This document shows positions 2 to 20,626 of a stretch of 46,295 nt of DNA, in pieces (positions within the stretch are counted from its first letter, which is position 1; every line of letters starts with the position of its first letter). The stretch comes from Candidatus Buchananbacteria bacterium CG10_big_fil_rev_8_21_14_0_10_33_19 (GTDB taxonomy: Bacteria > Patescibacteriota > Patescibacteriia > 2-01-FULL-39-33), in NCBI GenBank assembly GCA_002773855.1, contig PEZY01000005.1, forward strand, positions 74,237 through 120,531, written 5' to 3'. Position numbers and translations under genes: made by a program. Below the pieces are notes generated by a model that had not been told where the DNA came from, ran no database searches, and worked only from the letters and a program-made list of their open reading frames with translations.

Positions 2-3000
2 GTTGAGTAAATTAAAAATAACAGCAATCAAATTCCTCTTAACCTCAAATAGTTTAACTTCACTGGGTAAACTTTTAACTTTCGCCACTGGATCAACGGT
101 CACCGCAAAAATAGAATGTTGTCCTGGAGCCAACTCTACGATATCTTGAGAATGGTTTATTGTCCAATTACCATCCTTATCAGCTTTGGTTTGATAAATC
201 AGAGCCTGATCACTATGGATATAAACCACTATATCTTGATTTGGTAATGATTTACCACTAAACTGAATTATATTATTATTAATAACCGACACTGAAGCTG
301 CAGATACTTCTGGTACCATAATACTTGGCACTTCAGTTGATTCTATTATTTCATTGATATTAACTTCTGATGGCAATGGTAGTGATGGGGTTGTTAACCC
401 AGTTTCTAAAGATATTGAACTAGATGGCAATGATATTGTTGGCACTCCTGATCCAGTTTCTAATGGTGTCATCCTAGAATCTAGCGATATTACTGGTATG
501 GCATCAATATCAGCGGGTAGTGTTGTTGGATTAATCATTATAATCAACTCATCAGATGGTTCACTAGTATTACTAGAAAAATCTATAGATTTGACCGTTA
601 AAATATGAGCGCCATCAGAAAAATTAAAGCCTTGGCCAAAGCGTCCATTATTATCAACTGTAGAGATCAACCGCCCTACTAATAACCCATTGTCATATAA
701 ATCTATTATAGAACGTGGCTCAGCTAAGCCAGAAATAAAAATATTATTAAAGCTAGTTGGAATGTCTACTGGATTTAAAATTGGTTTAACTGGCGATATG
801 ATATCTGGTGATATAAATTCTAATGTCGGACCACCACCACTACTACTACCACCACTTGGTTCTGCAATAACAGGAGCTTCATAAATATTAATAGCCTCTA
901 AAGTCGCCTCATTACCATAATTATCTACCGCCCAAATCTTCATATAATAATCATTACTTATATCTAAGCCAGTGATCACTGTGGAAATTGTATTAATATT
1001 GCTTAAATTAATATCATCTACTTGATCCCATTTTTCAGCTATGCCAGCTCTATTATTTACATCACTAATAATTGAGCCATGCCAAATTTCATAATGATCA
1101 AAGTGGCCATCGGTTATGCCCTCTGACCACTTTAAGGTCACAGTAGTGTCTGTTGATGAAAATTTAGATAAATTAATAAGCCCTGATGGTCCAGCAGTGT
1201 CTACGCTAAAATCAGTTGATTCAACATAATCACTAATATTACCATAAGCATCAGTTGCCCTTAATCTAATTCTGATATCATTTTGTTCTTGATTAGAAAA
1301 ATCAGTATCTGCCGACCAAGTAATCGATTTGCCAGTACTCGTAGCAATATTACTGCCAATATCTCCGGAAGTGCTAGTAGTTGGCACTACCCAAGTACTA
1401 CCACCATCATCAGAAATACTAATCTCCACCAATAAACTATCAGCAGTATCATCACTTAAATCATAAGTAATAGTGACGTCACCGGAACCAAGCACTTGTG
1501 AAGCCAATAAATTAGTAATTACCGGTGGTGCATAATCAACTGCCACCGTAGAAGTAGCATAGTCACCATTATTAATACCATCATTGCCTCTTAACCTAAT
1601 ATAAACATTGGGGTTATAAATCGCTCCTAATTGAGACTGAGCATCCCACACAAAAGTCTGAGCAACGCCAGCTGGCGAACTACTCAAATTAACAACACTA
1701 TCGTGTAATGAGTCGGTAGTGGAAGCGGTCATAATCACCTCTTCACCGGCAAAATCACCAGTTAAGGAATATTCATAAGTGACTAATGAAGCCCGATCAC
1801 TTTGATCATCTTTTAATTCATAATTAACATAGACTAAGCTTGACGTTGTGTTTTGAGTTGGATCTAAATTTTGAATATGAGGCGGATCATTTTCGGTATA
1901 ACCAATAACTACATTATCCAAAATTACCTCTTGACTACCATCACCTTCCAAAAAAGCTTTCCATCTTATTTTATGATTAGTGACGTCAAAAGTAGCAATA
2001 TTACTATTAACAACTGAAGCTGTATTGTAATTTGTCTCCCCGGCTGTCGTCCAAGCGCTACCATCATAGTACTGCCAGGTAGCCCCATCGTCATTGGATA
2101 ATTGATAATAAATTTCACCACCATTTTTAGTCGCGGTCTCAATAAATGAATCCCAAATAGTCACTAGCTCATTAAAAAGTGAGGTTGTAGGATTAATTGT
2201 TGGCTTATCGGAAGCATAAGACACTGTGGTCTTTGACCAATTAACTATCACATTATCAAAGCCAGCTACAGTAGTATATTTGCCGTTATCGCCTGGCGTA
2301 TCATGGTAAGCAACAATTTTTAAGTAATAAGTGCCAGCTATTGGCAACTTGCTAGCTATATCGATAGTGGCACTACTAGCCCAAGGAGTTATATTGGATA
2401 TTTCACCACTACTCCAAACTTCCTGACCTAATGTCGGATTACCGCTGGTAGTGTCAATAAAAACATAAAGTTGATAAGTATCAAGAGCGGCTGGCACTGA
2501 ATAACTAATTGATGACCAATCAAAATTTAAGGTAGCTGTATCGGGAGAATTAATGGTAGTAATAAAAGATTGCCTATACAAGCCAGCCGTTGTTTTATTT
2601 TTAGCCGAACTTAAAGTAATTTCAATATTACCGTCGGGGTTACCACCAGTTGAATAATAAGCGCCACTAGCACCGGGGTTATTAAGCCAATCGGCATAAG
2701 TCCAACCAGTTGCATCACTATCAAAACCGGAGTTAGTAGTCGCCCCAGAAGTAGTGGCTCCAATATTTTTAAGCTGTGCTACTCCACCAACAACTTCAAT
2801 TTTAGCGCTGTCATAGGTATAATCTTCAGCGCTGTCAAAAGCCCAATTCTCCGTCGCCGCTAACAAGGCCTGCCCACCCAACAAATAAAACGAGGTAAAA
2901 ATAATCAAAAGCACCTTTAAAATTATAAAAGTGCCAGCACCAAAACCAGTAGTTAAGCTAATGCGTCTTCTAGCGGTATAAGCCCAGATAATGCTTTCCT

Positions 3001-16705: not shown

Positions 16706-16725
16706 TTACTGTTCATTACACTAAT

Positions 16726-16753
16726 AAAAAAGACCCCTAGGGGGGTCTTTTTT
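16726..16753. terminator. Bidirectional intrinsic terminator
   Basis: AAAAAAGACCCC-TAGG-GGGGTCTTTTTT between convergent units. Confidence 0.85.
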
Positions 16754-16762
16754 ATTTTATAT

Positions 16763-16889
16763 TCCGCGAACTGGACTCACCTTCCACTCTAATCGGCTTC
16801 CGCCTCTTCGGTTACACGCCGGCTCTCGCGGTTTGCTTCGCCCAAAAGTGCGTCATCAAACATCGCTCCGGACTTCGAGTCCAGACGCG
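16763..16889 (-). repeat. tRNA-Asn 3'-end fragments (one sense, one antisense) enclosing a structured insert
   Basis: 16763-16778 identical to 16961-16976; 16874-16884 is the reverse complement of 16969-16979. Confidence 0.85.
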
Positions 16890-16918
16890 ACACAAGCTAT
16901 TGTGTCGCTTTCGCTTCA

Positions 16919-16959
16919 CAAAAATAAAAACAGGCACAAAGTGCCTGTTTTTATTTTTG
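16919..16959 (-). terminator. 19-bp perfect inverted repeat/terminator directly 3' of tRNA-Asn
   Basis: CAAAAATAAAAACAGGCAC-AAA-GTGCCTGTTTTTATTTTTG. Confidence 0.8.
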
Positions 16960-17031
16960 CTCCGCGAACTGGACTCGAACCAGTAACCTACCGGTTAACA
17001 GCCGGTTGCTCTACCATTGAGCTATCGCGGA
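16960..17031 (-). tRNA. tRNA-Asn(GTT), CCA not encoded
   Basis: TCCGCGA-TAGCTCAATGGTAGAGC-A-ACCGG-CTGTTAA-CCGGT-AGGTT-ACTGG-TTCGAGT-CCAGT-TCGCGGA-G folds into a full cloverleaf. Confidence 0.97.
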
Positions 17032-17060
17032 ATATATTTTTACTTTCTGATCAATTTAAT

Positions 17061-17210
17061 CGGTTGCTCTTCCGGGGCAGCGCCAAATGCTCCCACTTGG
17101 TCGCATCTGTCGATCTTTCGCTTCGCCTTACGGCTCGCTCAATTCTGCCCGTTCATCCGGCTACGCCTTCTGAACCCATTGAGCTATCGCGGAATATATT
17201 TTTACTTTCT
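17061..17210 (-). repeat. Duplicated 5' part of tRNA-Asn with a 105-nt insert in the D-loop
   Basis: 17176-17210 is an exact 35-bp copy of 17014-17048; 17061-17070 copies 17003-17012; insert is 17071-17175. Confidence 0.88.
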
Positions 17211-17271
17211 AAACAATTTAAAAAAATATAAGTTGATATTAAAGGCGAGCCGTTACAGACTCACCTCAAAC

Positions 17272-17303: not shown

Positions 17304-18620
17304 TTAAAAATCCCGAAGTTTTTCCACACCTTTAATTTTTTCTATCTTTTCCAAAGCTTTCGCTTCGATTTGCCTAATACGTTCACGTGTTACATCAAAC
17401 TCCTGACCCACTTCTTCTAGTGTATGAGCTACTCCATCTTTAAGTCCAAATCTCATTTCCAAAACTTTCTGTTCTCGGGGTGTTAATTGAGATATCACTT
17501 CTTGAACATAATCACCCAAAATCTGCAAAGCGGCTACTCTATCTGGAGTGACAGTTTTTTGATCCTCAATAAAATCTTCTAACACGCTATCATCACTATC
17601 ATCACCTACTGGCGTACCCAGTGATATTGTTTCTTGAGAAATTTTTATAATGTGATTAATCTTTTCAATATCCTCTCCCATTTCAGCCGCAATTTCCTCG
17701 GGCATTGGTTCCCGTCCTAAATCCTGAACTAATCTTCTTTCCACTTGTTGGAATTTATTAATATTTTCCACCATATGCACTGGAATTCTAATAGTTCTAG
17801 ATTGATCAGCTAGCGACCTAGTAATAGCCTGACGAATCCACCAAGTGGCATAAGTCGAAAACTTATAACCCTTATGGTAATCAAATTTATCCACGGCTCT
17901 AAACAAGCCAATATTACCCTCTTGAATTAAATCCAAAAGCGACAAACTCTTACCAGTAAATCTTTTGGCAATAGAAACTACTAATCTTAAATTGGCTTTA
18001 ATTAATTGATGTTTGGCTTCCATATTGCCTCGCTCAATTTCCTTGGCCAACATAATCTCCTCATCAGACTTCAAAAGTGGCACCCGACCAATTTCTCGCA
18101 AATACATCTGAATGGAATCAGTAGAAATATCACCCAAATTAATATCAATTTCTGCTAATTCTTTTAACTTAGCCATAGTGCGGCTTTTGGTTTTATCAAC
18201 TTTCTTAGGTTTAATTTCTTCTTTGAGCGCAAATGGGCTCTTTAGCATAGTACTGCCAAAAAAACCACCACTTTCCACCACACTGACACTGGCAGATGAT
18301 AAATCCTCTAATAATTCTTCGTATCTATCGACATATTCTTCCAACTCAGGGAAGATAATCATAATTTCTTGTTCTGTAATAAAACTTCGCGATCTACCTT
18401 TTCTGATAAGATTTATAATCGCTTCTTCGTCTGGTTTTATTTCTACCTTGGGAATTTTTAAAGTTTTAACCTTCTTTTTTAAAACAGCTGATTTTTTCGG
18501 CTGAGTTTTTTTCTTACTTATCGGGTTAACTTTTTTCCTAGTAGATTTTTTGACGGTTTTTTTTACAGAAACTTTTTTATTGGCCTTGGCTACAGCCTTA
18601 TTAACAATTTTTTTCGTCAT
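17304..18620 (-). CDS. rpoD: Primary RNA polymerase sigma factor
   Basis: [64 protein letters not shown]; Lys-rich N-terminal extension. Confidence 0.97.
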
Positions 18621-18724: not shown

Positions 18725-20626
18725 CTACTCTTTTCTTTTTAATAACTCTGATAATTCCAGCGACAAGCTATTGATCTTATTCGAATCAGATCTTTTTTCA
18801 GCTTCTTGCAAATCCTGGTTTAACAAACTTATTTTTTTATTTAAGTAATCGTTATTAAGTATTTTGAGAGTGGCGCTTAATTCGGCCTTAGCTTCCTTGG
18901 CTGTTAAATCAGCGAAATCTTTAGCGGAAAGCAAAAATGACTCGTCAAGCAAGTTAATAAGCTCTTGGTTACTTAAATTGTCTTCTTCTTTGAGAAAATC
19001 TTTAATAATACTGTGCAAATCCATTTCGGCTTTATCCACAGATAAAAGAGATTTTAATTCATTACTTTTACTATAGAATAACACTAATCTTTTGTAAAGG
19101 TCAAGGGCTACTCTGGTATATAAGTATTCGACCAATAAATCATCCACTAATTTAGGTAATAAAACTGGAAATTTTAAAATAATGGCTAAAATCCGGCTAA
19201 ACAACTGCAAATCCTTGGTTAACGCCTCATTGTTTACTACGCTTTTTATCTCGGAATTATTGCTGTCTGATACTATATTTTTTGGCAAATTAGACATTTC
19301 TTCTTGCAAAATACTCTCAGAAATACCAGTTTTTTGTGACAAGACTTTTCTCCAATGACCTATTTCTAATTTGTTATTAATTTTATTAATCCGTGGCAAC
19401 AATTTTCTAACCACTATTAATTTTTGATCAACATTATTAATGTCTATAGCTGAAAACTCTTTATCAAAAAAATATTCCATAATCGGCCTAGCCCGTGCTA
19501 CTGCCTCCTGCCAATTAGCTGGATTATTTTTAATCATTTCATCTGGGTCCTTGGCACCAATAATATTAACCACTTTTATGGTTATGCCATGACTGCCAGC
19601 ATAATCTTGTAACTTACCTCTTCTATCTTTTGATTGAAATCTGTAATTATTTAATGAATCTAATAAAGCATCGCCTTTAGTCGTAGCATTTTGACCAGCT
19701 ATATCAGCATCTAGGGCAAATAAAAAATTATTAGTATGTCTTTTGATTAATTCAAATTGATCCATAGTTAAAGCCGTGCCAGACGAAGCTACGACATTTT
19801 TAAAACCATGTTGGTGAGCAGTTATGGCATCCATTTGACCCTCAACTATCACAGCACTATCTTGTGATTTAATATAAGACTTAGATTTACTAAGAGCAAA
19901 AACAATTCGACTCTTATCATAAATATCAGTTTGAGGACTATTAATATATTTACCCATCACTTCTGTGGCTTCTTTGTCTGGACTGACTCGAGCCGTAAAA
20001 GCCACTGTATTGCCACTGGCATCATCAATTGGAAACATAATACGACTTCTAAAACGATCAAAAAAACCAAAGCCACTTTTCTTTTTCAGTGACAGACCAG
20101 CCAAAAATATTTCCTGATCATTAAAACCACGCTTTTTTAAAAAGTCATAAATATTAGTCCAACCATCTGGACTATAGCCAATTTGCCAATCAATAATTGT
20201 GTCCTCCGTTAAACCACGATTTAATAAATACTGTAAAGCCGGTTTGGCTGATTCACTATTGAGCAAGACATAATGATAATACTTCTTAGCTAGCTCCATG
20301 GCCTGCAGTAATCTGGTTTTTTGACTATTATCTTTGTGATCATAATTACTTAAAACCACACCAGCCTTTTTGGCCAAAACTTTCTTAGCCTCTGGAAACT
20401 CCAAGCCCTCTATTTTCATTAAAAATTCAAAAATATCACCACCCGCCCCACAACCAAAACACTTAAAAATCTTCTTTTCTGGACTAATCATCATTGATGG
20501 GGTTTTTTCGTTATGAAACGGACAAAGAGCTCTAAAATTAGAGCCCGCTTGAACCAATTTAACATACTCCGACATTAAATCGGTGATACTAATTCTATCT
20601 TTTATTTCATCAATTTCACTGGCCAT
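18725..20626 (-). CDS. dnaG: DNA primase
   Basis: CPFHNEKTPS..CFGC zinc finger, DRFRSRIMFPI, KYINSP, TOPRIM VEGQMD..DAD.AG, KDPDE. Confidence 0.97.
   Translation of the reverse strand: MASEIDEIKDRISITDLMSEYVKLVQAGSNFRALCPFHNEKTPSMMISPEKKIFKCFGCGAGGDIFEFLMKIEGLEFPEAKKVLAKKAGVVLSNYDHKDNSQKTRLLQAMELAKKYYHYVLLNSESAKPALQYLLNRGLTEDTIIDWQIGYSPDGWTNIYDFLKKRGFNDQEIFLAGLSLKKKSGFGFFDRFRSRIMFPIDDASGNTVAFTARVSPDKEATEVMGKYINSPQTDIYDKSRIVFALSKSKSYIKSQDSAVIVEGQMDAITAHQHGFKNVVASSGTALTMDQFELIKRHTNNFLFALDADIAGQNATTKGDALLDSLNNYRFQSKDRRGKLQDYAGSHGITIKVVNIIGAKDPDEMIKNNPANWQEAVARARPIMEYFFDKEFSAIDINNVDQKLIVVRKLLPRINKINNKLEIGHWRKVLSQKTGISESILQEEMSNLPKNIVSDSNNSEIKSVVNNEALTKDLQLFSRILAIILKFPVLLPKLVDDLLVEYLYTRVALDLYKRLVLFYSKSNELKSLLSVDKAEMDLHSIIKDFLKEEDNLSNQELINLLDESFLLSAKDFADLTAKEAKAELSATLKILNNDYLNKKISLLNQDLQEAEKRSDSNKINSLSLELSELLKRKE

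Follow-up and report, generated by a model that had tools for sequence, protein, structure and literature searches.

What is a 105-nt structured sequence doing in the D-loop of half a tRNA gene, just upstream of the only tRNA-Asn gene of a 945-kb bacterial genome? The locus lies on the minus strand of a 46,295-nt stretch of DNA, hereafter the window, from Candidatus Buchananbacteria bacterium CG10_big_fil_rev_8_21_14_0_10_33_19 (assembly GCA_002773855.1, contig PEZY01000005.1, positions 74,237 to 120,531). The insert is one copy of a new repeat family, D1, whose members are structured and linked to tRNA genes; the family is well supported and has spread through a group of tiny groundwater bacteria. 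We hold with moderate confidence that D1 is a new mobile element, structured but non-autonomous, with a preference for tRNA-gene loops; it would persist only where the tRNA segment it interrupts is a redundant partial copy and, at this locus, be co-transcribed in the tRNA-Asn leader. D1 is more likely to be selfish DNA than a new regulator.

An interrupted half copy of tRNA-Asn

Read along the minus strand, the locus runs from a promoter-like site through a short hairpin, a 46-nt block, the 105-nt insert, tRNA nt 21-30 and a single A to a second 46-nt block and the intact tRNA-Asn. An earlier reading of the region, made from the sequence only, had proposed this succession of leader, half tRNA, 105-nt insert in the D-loop and loss of the match, and both the sequence and a repeat search of the window bear it out; the duplicated leader it described is present, but at 28 nt is longer than it had noted. 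The two 46-nt blocks (17176-17221 and 17014-17059) form a direct repeat of 96% identity, each made of the 28-nt leader and tRNA-Asn nt 1-18. The tRNA part of the upstream block occupies 17193-17176, and the downstream block supplies the leader and the first 18 nt of the working gene. The repeat starts lie 162 nt apart, and an exact 16-mer of the tRNA-Asn start recurs at -162. A second direct repeat, AGAGCAACCG (17061-17073 against 17003-17015, 92%), takes in the copy of tRNA-Asn nt 21-30 at 17061-17070, within which lies the 3' strand of the insert-closing D-stem and beyond which homology to the tRNA stops.

The insert is exactly 105 nt long (17175-17071) and, as had been read, takes the place of the single T after the D-loop GG, which is U20 of the partial tRNA-Asn copy. 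It is indeed rich in G+C (59%, against 33% in the window) and in purines (65%). The intact tRNA-Asn(GTT), at 16959-17031, is the sole tRNA called at the locus by ARAGORN and Rfam (RF00005, 74.6 bits), and it is the single tRNA-Asn among the 44 tRNA genes of the genome. In the list of open reading frames (ORFs), only spurious opposite-strand frames cross the insert.

A gene interrupted in this way might be a second tRNA-Asn gene with a spliced D-loop intron, or it might be a misassembly; we find this pair of explanations scarcely credible. The precise placement in the D-loop, with the D-stem preserved, does speak for an intron. The interrupted copy, however, ends at nt 30, with nt 31-56 missing, and has a complete gene after it, so that splicing is unneeded, and the only downstream 3' fragment (16762-16778) belongs to a different unit, D2, described below. 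The idea of an intron-like relic is thus not supported. In the cases given in PMC3241643 and PMC3978253, archaeal non-canonical tRNA introns and split or permuted tRNA genes also place their interruptions outside position 37/38, including in the D-loop region. D1 differs from them in its truncated interrupted copy, in the intact gene that comes after it, in needing no splicing and in its bacterial host.

Misassembly draws some plausibility from the 46-nt repeats, which break the contig graph. In Logan contigs from four independent aquifer/groundwater DNA metagenome runs (X1, X2, X8 and X13), the contigs break at the repeat and none covers the entire stretch. The pieces between the breaks nevertheless argue for the arrangement. 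A 187-nt piece (17019-17205) links both repeat copies through the insert with 0 differences in X1, X2 and X8, and its 192-nt equivalent in X13 (17014-17205) also shows 0 differences. These pieces lie at the depth of their flanks; in X1 the values are 70.8 for the linking piece and 68.2 and 68.5 for the flanks, and the repeat core (17176-17210, 35 nt) has about double depth (129). No joint that skips the insert is listed among the contigs of the four runs, to which rare empty alleles are invisible. The same architecture is found at this locus in five other genomes. Contigs of four runs thus support the insert at flank-equal depth, and the arrangement exists in the sampled populations. The runs listed as holding the stretch include no RNA run.

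A fold conserved by covariation

The minimum-energy fold of the insert has an energy of -45.8 kcal/mol (z = -2.2), and 5 of 200 shuffled sequences fold equally well. This single-sequence fold is modest evidence alone, and the covariation of the family lifts it above chance. All of the nested helices read earlier from the sequence are in the predicted fold: GUUCA/UGAAC around GGC..GCC, and GGGCAG/CUGCCC enclosing GCC-GUAA-GGC and CAGAUGC/GCAUUUG, with the D-stem GCUC/GAGC closing the whole. In order along the strand these are a hairpin, P1 (17175-17151); P2, in which GGGCAG (17150-17145) pairs with CUGCCC (17080-17075); P3 (GCC-GUAA-GGC) and P4 (CAGAUGC...GCAUUUG) inside the junction; and a conserved 3' tail, CGGA (17074-17071). 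The family consensus follows the same plan: P1 is a hairpin, P2, P3 and P4 meet in a three-way junction, and the 3' end is a conserved NGGA tail. Its P2 has 5-7 bp in variants that include GGGCAG/CUGCCC and GGGUUGG/CCAACCC, its P3 is a short hairpin, and its P4 is a longer hairpin with a GA...GA internal loop.

Compensatory changes occur in 25 of the 27 pairs among 36 copies from 30 genomes, in an alignment fitted to the model. Across these copies paired cells amount to 94.8%, against 73.9% in shuffled alignments (0 of 500 shuffles reach the observed value) and 27-44% with slid partners. A plain MAFFT alignment of eight copies shows compensatory changes in 14 of the 27 pairs.

Distribution of the family

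BLAST of the region against its own 945-kb genome gave one weak extra match, which lies at tRNA-Lys(TTT) and has the same architecture. Exact upstream copies of the first 16 nt exist for four of the 44 tRNAs, Asn, Glu(CTC), Lys(TTT) and Ser(CGA), and the half copies of the first three hold a homologous insert right after the D-loop GG. A covariance model, R1, was built from eight copies; it scores the copy in the window at 88.8 bits (E 2.7e-17). With source-genome matches taken at E up to 0.3, R1 finds ten copies in the source genome (G000), all at most 77 nt from a tRNA gene and on the same strand. Three of these are in upstream half copies (Asn, Glu and Lys), and seven are downstream of tRNAs (Lys, Ser-TGA, Gly-TCC, Trp, Gln-TTG, Gln-CTG and Asp). 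The insert therefore has homologs both in its own genome and in relatives, and they covary.

Among 61 related genomes, 33 have R1 matches; the proportion is 28 of 33 within the same family and 4 of 27 among the other families of the class. The number of copies ranges from 0 to 25 among close relatives, with 25 in G022, 18 in G009, 12 in G001 and 11 in G010. A phylum-wide sample yielded a copy in 3 of 150 genomes. Among the 150 listed matches, at least 11 are within ~250 nt of a contig start, as is expected because repeats break assemblies. In a scan of public genomes with a loose pattern, 80 of the 120 reported loci were tested with R1, of which four matched, with five hits; the named records are Candidatus Moraniibacteriota and Moranbacteria metagenome-assembled genomes (MAGs), one MAG labelled Gammaproteobacteria and, weakly, one Bdellovibrionales MAG. 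The two weak matches in the last (L133, 388-473 and 556-643, 24 bits each) share a P4-like hairpin and flank a partial tRNA-Trp duplication, by eye just after the apparent 3' end of a protein gene; they may represent a distant relative or chance. D1 is mainly confined to one family of the candidate phyla radiation (CPR)/Patescibacteria, as an element of about 85-140 nt that has no protein gene and is multi-copy within a genome.

The remark in the sequence-only reading that no named family fits the insert stands. Rfam scans of the locus and insert, at the gathering score and at E up to 10, returned only tRNAs and chance matches, and scans of six further D1 loci at E up to 1 returned no family, no tRNA-like family and no group I or group II core. 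Riboswitch, ribozyme, small-RNA, T-box, tmRNA and RNase P models are among those that gave no match to D1. A literature search of listings and abstracts found no published description of D1.

Where the copies sit

We inspected 82 copies with their flanks. The layout of the tRNA-Asn locus recurs in 27 of them: leader and tRNA nt 1-19, the element, a few to about 20 nt from nt 21, a spacer and then the intact same tRNA. The tRNAs involved in these D-loop half copies are Asn, Met, Thr, Glu, Gln, Lys, Gly, Val, Ile and Asp. Five more (Val and Gly) share this layout except that the element follows G46 in the variable loop, and 19 come after an intact tRNA, with a copy of that tRNA's 3' part behind them. 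The other 31 are not near a tRNA. Homologs thus interrupt duplicated tRNA fragments in the D-loop, variable-loop and downstream copies, but not in these 31. Every tRNA-linked copy is on the strand of the tRNA and in a partial tRNA duplicate. In the D-loop the element is inserted after G19 and in the variable loop after G46, in both cases between GG and U; the T-loop is the third site.

The downstream form, which is the commonest and has the widest distribution, is the sole form in the three genomes of the phylum-wide sample and in the Moranbacteria MAGs. The unit opens with sequence complementary to the T-loop, T-stem and acceptor 3' strand, and it ends with a GUCGUAA-like sequence, tRNA nt 59-76 and the host's own trailer or terminator, so that the downstream unit folds as a closed helix with the D1 core and a second hairpin. 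In the closing helix, which is 7-13 bp long, the T-stem/acceptor 3' strand pairs with its complement; the discriminator base comes next. In this respect the unit resembles tRNA-like modules such as acceptor/T-arm minihelices, the tRNA-like domain of transfer-messenger RNA (tmRNA) and YrlA. The copy in the window is unlike such modules, having only the 5' tRNA half, and the tRNA-like families of Rfam do not match it.

The 30 copies away from tRNAs in G022, G009 and G010 are short (~85 nt), often near-identical and sometimes tandem, and they are flanked on both sides by C-rich/G-rich palindromic hairpins that are not clear terminal inverted repeats. Such spread of a short form beyond tRNA loci is seen in two genera. 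Nesting within an outer tRNA was considered as a general rule and rejected: a 3' tRNA fragment lies downstream in 2 of the 24 D-loop loci scored (25 were examined, and no tRNA was called in one), plus, by eye, the divergent locus L221.

Evidence for movement

The proposal of a tRNA-targeting mobile RNA or miniature inverted-repeat transposable element (MITE) is supported at the level of the family. It agrees with the multiple copies, the spread over five tRNAs in one genome, an insertion into a protein gene and seven empty sites; the classical hallmarks of a MITE were not found. A single subfamily has near-identical copies in five D-loops of G009, each within a partial tRNA duplicate (Asp, two Val, Thr and Lys). 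Three of them have branch lengths of 0.013-0.076 in a tree of 51 copies whose signal is too weak to separate orthology from homing at tRNA-Asn. The reverse-transcriptase (RT) gene of a diversity-generating retroelement (DGR) in G010 contains, on the opposite strand, a complete non-tRNA unit, which contributes 59 in-frame aa and leaves the frame open. The RT is 396 aa long in G010 and 334 aa in G000, and the two proteins are otherwise closely similar. The syntenic rpoD-tRNA-Asn site is filled by D1 in G000, G001, G014, G017, G013 and G023, and is empty, with a spacer of 78-143 nt, in G028, G024, G007, G009, G004, G015 and G025.

How might such an element enter a tRNA locus and stay there? The route of integration, the co-transcription and the processing that we outline here are what we infer from the arrangement of the sequence. 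Direct repeats of the tRNA segment around the element are as expected after single-crossover (Campbell-type) integration of a small circle, or of a tandem copy, in which the element adjoins tRNA homology; alternatively, a short tandem duplication may have come first and the element have inserted into one of its copies. Loss of exactly 162 nt by recombination between the 46-nt repeats would restore the normal gene and would account for the empty sites. The tRNA genes of these ~1-Mb genomes are essentially single-copy and essential, so insertions without an intact copy could not persist. That only insertions beside an intact gene persist would explain why every tRNA-linked copy is in a partial duplicate.

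The promoter predicted earlier, TTGACA-17-TATTAT, is at 17300-17272 on the minus strand, where it is TG-extended, agrees with the consensus at 11 of 12 positions and lies upstream of both insert and tRNA. It is the only strong match upstream of tRNA-Asn, and by eye the relatives that lack the insert have a promoter at the same position. An 11/12 match stands upstream of the half copy at Lys as well as at Asn, and no promoter was found between element and tRNA at either locus. Because the only strong promoter is upstream of the half copy, D1 should be part of the primary transcript, in a 5' leader of ~230 nt ahead of the sole tRNA-Asn gene. Cleavage by RNase P at +1 of the working tRNA would release the D1-bearing leader. 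The genes for RNase P RNA and tmRNA are both present elsewhere in the genome, and on that ground the idea that the flanking structures are one or the other was rejected.

Mobile-element hallmarks and the search for an enzyme

A number of results weigh against a mobile element, and we collect them in this section and the next. Terminal inverted repeats were not found at the tRNA-linked copies, nor was a fixed short target-site duplication, and none is evident at the insertion in the RT gene of G010; the tRNA-linked copies are flanked by repeats of variable extent, 18-50 nt. No cognate autonomous transposase for D1 was found in searches for PF07282 and PF01797, the two families searched among transposases. 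The TnpB domain (PF07282) is in none of five genomes, which led us to reject a TnpB/omega-RNA origin. The Y1 transposase (PF01797) is in two of the five, G001 and G009; there, no element lies within 1.5 kb of it even with filters off, and no C/G-rich hairpins stand beside the Y1 genes, so an origin linked to Y1 transposases and repetitive extragenic palindromic (REP) sequences was rejected too. No GIY-YIG gene is near D1 copies in 93 loci (183 kb), and the DGR cassette of G000 has no D1 nearby.

These results also set D1 apart from the element classes that it most recalls. REP sequences with their RAYT transposases (REP-associated tyrosine transposases) and other IS200/IS605-derived elements share with D1 a conserved fold rather than a conserved coding sequence and the lack of a target duplication; they differ in their link to Y1 or TnpB genes, since the few Y1 genes seen here are not flanked by D1 and TnpB was absent from all five genomes. 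MITEs and structured intergenic repeats, above all the Rickettsia palindromic elements, are, like D1, small, protein-less, multi-copy, lineage-restricted and folded. The Rickettsia elements have tiny host-dependent genomes and in-frame insertion into protein genes in common with it as well. Unlike these, D1 prefers tRNA loops, its tRNA-linked copies are paired with a partial tRNA duplicate, and it folds into a three-way junction, not a simple palindrome; terminal inverted repeats, a target-site duplication and a transposase were not found.

Integration might instead proceed at the level of RNA. D1 RNA would enter exposed tRNA loops (19/20, 46/47 and the T-loop) and be fixed by reverse transcription and recombination, much as a short interspersed nuclear element or a retro-intron is; we judge this highly improbable. 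The insertion points are indeed tRNA positions at which the loops tolerate length variation, they show the GG and U context, and DGR-type RTs occur in many of these genomes. Yet the duplicates include sequence that is untranscribed or present only in precursors (the 28-nt leader, trailers and terminators). An RT domain (RVT_1) occurs in 22 of the 33 genomes that have the element and in 15 of the 28 that lack it, which is no association and counts equally against an RT as the enzyme that moves D1. The RTs examined are of the DGR type, and such enzymes are specific for their own template.

It is also conceivable, though quite improbable in our view, that D1 is the scar of a larger integrase-bearing phage, plasmid or island, reduced to a short remnant that holds a structured RNA. 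Integrase-mediated integration usually duplicates the 3' part of a tRNA; at the Asn locus it is the 5' part, with the leader, that is duplicated, and the leaders, trailers and terminators repeated around D1 are the host's own, unlike the repeats of integrase elements. More than 80 copies are uniformly 85-250 nt and have no adjacent integrase or ORF; none was found within or beside D1, either at the Asn locus or among the 82 copies. A core pattern gave 0 matches in viral contigs, a result of little weight because the pattern represents a single subfamily. In favour of a scar, a protein-coding GIY-YIG invader has the same layout at tRNA-Ser, and partial tRNA duplicates together with one intact tRNA are the classic integrase footprint: in the examples given in PMC9897764, integration into tRNA genes leaves partial tRNA duplicates as attL and attR, and as in those islands, phages and integrative and conjugative elements, an intact and a partial tRNA copy flank D1 as direct repeats. 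The elements in the same examples, however, measure 9-121 kb, against 105-250 nt for D1, and are defined by an integrase that D1 lacks.

Persistence in place and a possible function

The second group of contrary results concerns the stability of D1 at one site. Six genomes from five genera have the Asn copy at a syntenic position. The leader and acceptor strand of the half copy equal those of each genome's own tRNA, so that the acceptor strand reads TCTGCGA in G001 and TCAGCGG in G017 and G013, and three genera have GCGAAATGG instead of GCTCAATGG in the half copy. That the half copy tracks its own tRNA implies either selection on a resident copy or gene conversion with repeated replacement. 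The Asn copies of G000 and G001 share their right-hand breakpoint and differ at 29 of 135 columns, yet none of the differences breaks a pair; they include four double compensatory changes and one GC-to-GU change. To judge from these changes, this looks like in-place selection on the fold, which a purely selfish relic would not need. Neither excision nor empty alleles were seen in the contigs of the source population. G-U pairs outnumber A-C mismatches by 28 to 9 in one set, but the other set has 5 of the former against 15 of the latter; these inconsistent counts favour neither strand, and neither RNA nor DNA, as the selected molecule. It is because of this persistence in place that our confidence in a purely selfish element is limited.

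Given the predicted co-transcription and the compensatory changes between orthologous copies, D1 may have an RNA-level role, such as the regulation of tRNA maturation that the sequence-only reading had suggested. It may thus be a host-beneficial structured RNA, made from tRNA operons on a tRNA-derived scaffold and trimmed by the enzymes that process tRNAs, an explanation that we regard as the main rival, possible but doubtful. The scaffold would be the 5' half with the D-stem at the window locus and an acceptor/T-stem minihelix in the downstream form, and the product might be a small RNA or a module that binds protein, or might influence in cis the folding or processing of the adjacent pre-tRNA. 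Such a role would fit the shared strand of tRNA and element in every tRNA-linked copy, the promoter upstream of the element with none between it and the tRNA, the compensatory changes between syntenic copies from two species of one genus, the D-stem closure that is either kept or replaced by GCGA/GAGC in three genera, and the closed helix that the downstream units form from the tRNA 3' strand and its complement. It fits poorly with a presence that is patchy even within genera and with the seven empty syntenic sites, and this patchiness argues against an essential role. Many downstream copies, moreover, stand behind an intrinsic terminator, 31 copies are away from tRNAs, one of them inside an ORF on the opposite strand, and the number of copies varies from 0 to 25 among close relatives.

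A more specific version of this idea, which we consider unlikely, would make D1 a new class of structured RNA on a tRNA scaffold, trimmed by RNase P and by the tRNA 3'-end machinery, its fold under selection for action in tRNA metabolism and its spread secondary. In that case D1 could serve a tRNA-binding protein as decoy or platform, or chaperone the pre-tRNA in cis. Weighing both groups of contrary results, we still favour a mobile element with a preference for tRNA loops.

Neighbouring features of the locus

The gene upstream of the locus encodes a sigma-70 factor (rpoD-like; 17304-18620, minus strand, with Pfam Sigma70 regions r1_1 to r4) and ends just before it; dnaG (18725-20626, Pfam DnaG domains) is further upstream. 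Between the promoter and the first 46-nt block, at the predicted 5' end of the transcript, a short hairpin on the minus strand can be read from the sequence as GAGGUGAGUC-UGUAAC-GGCUCGCCUU (17242-17267); by eye, a hairpin occupies the same place in G001 and G014.

Immediately after the tRNA comes a terminator-like hairpin with a U-tract (16920-16958, minus strand), formed by an inverted repeat (16910-16937 and 16941-16968) and absent from the minus-strand list of the terminator scan. The terminator hairpins after tRNA-Asn (16910-16968) and after tRNA-Lys (L003, ~1590-1650) both reach into the acceptor 3' strand, with arms of 28 nt that are 86% complementary, and could compete with formation of the acceptor stem.

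Behind this terminator lies D2 (16779-16919, minus strand), a second and different structured element with a fold of -58 kcal/mol (z -2.4). It is closed by a copy of the tRNA-Asn 3' end, GAGUCCAGUUCGCGGA (16762-16778, minus strand), which extends from the T-loop to the acceptor 3' strand with 1 mismatch in 16, and a palindromic terminator-like hairpin (16723-16756), listed by the terminator scan, ends the locus. D2 has the layout of downstream D1 copies: its 5' part is complementary to the T-arm and acceptor 3' strand of the tRNA, and an internal domain follows. The two have a GAGGCGGAAGCCGA hairpin in common, and model R1 does not match D2. A paralogue of D2 with the same layout follows tRNA-Pro (G000:C5:99847-100007; L039 ~340-480, minus strand), and BLAST finds relatives of D2 in other genomes.

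Other insertions in tRNA genes of these genomes

Half copies of tRNA-Asn also hold other sequences. In G034 (L023) a 30-nt pair of GC-rich hairpins follows nt 12, and in G010 (L014) about 75 nt of hairpins follow nt 10; both are unrelated to D1. Similar hairpins, of the form UCCRRCC...GGYYGGA, occur after D1 at tRNA-Lys in G000 and at tRNA-Asp in G009.

The fourth tRNA with an exact upstream copy in the source genome, tRNA-Ser(CGA) (region of G000:C11:14643-14843), has a half copy with exact nt 1-37 about 381 nt upstream of the intact gene. Between them are a 107-aa GIY-YIG ORF (L243 1501-1824; Pfam E 1.8e-13), which reads into the tRNA, and two GC-rich hairpins. A similar GIY-YIG ORF of 98 aa abuts tRNA-Asn in G032 (L016 725-1021). 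The GIY-YIG gene is a protein-coding invader with the same half-copy footprint as D1.

The anticodon loop of tRNA-Asn is split by ~250-570 nt, presumably a group I intron, in G023 (L012; C69), G002, G012, G016, G018, G019, G027 and G031; in G023 this split coexists with an upstream D1 half copy and a downstream D2 unit. A nested arrangement is seen at tRNA-Val(CAC) (L219) and tRNA-Val(TAC) (L221) of G009, where an older tRNA-Val is split after the anticodon. Its nt 1-36 part holds D1 and its nt 37-76 part is downstream, and the splitting cassette consists of a different, intact tRNA-Val between inverted repeats of 10-15 bp. This looks like an incoming gene replacing the resident tRNA gene.

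The DGR of G000 (L233; C10:229740-233348) has three parts: the gene for the 334-aa RT, which contains an LGNLTSQ motif (1285-2289); on the minus strand, that for a four-helix protein resembling Avd (905-1246); and the C-terminal end of what is probably the variable target protein (42-422). The RT frames of several relatives, at 380-419 aa, may contain further insertions.

Conclusions

D1 is a new and well-supported motif of structured nucleic acid that is absent from Rfam and comes from the poorly explored CPR bacteria. Its lifestyle is unusual in being near-exclusive to the loops of tRNA genes, where it is tolerated as a spare partial copy of the tRNA takes the hit. The family also explains tRNA 'half genes' that annotation pipelines are liable to miscall. 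Genomes of ~1 Mb with single-copy tRNA genes hold several invaders of those genes: D1, D2, hairpin inserts, a GIY-YIG gene and anticodon-loop insertions. D1 offers a natural test case both for the survival of essential single-copy RNA genes under insertion and for the co-option of a highly expressed tRNA leader as a functional RNA.

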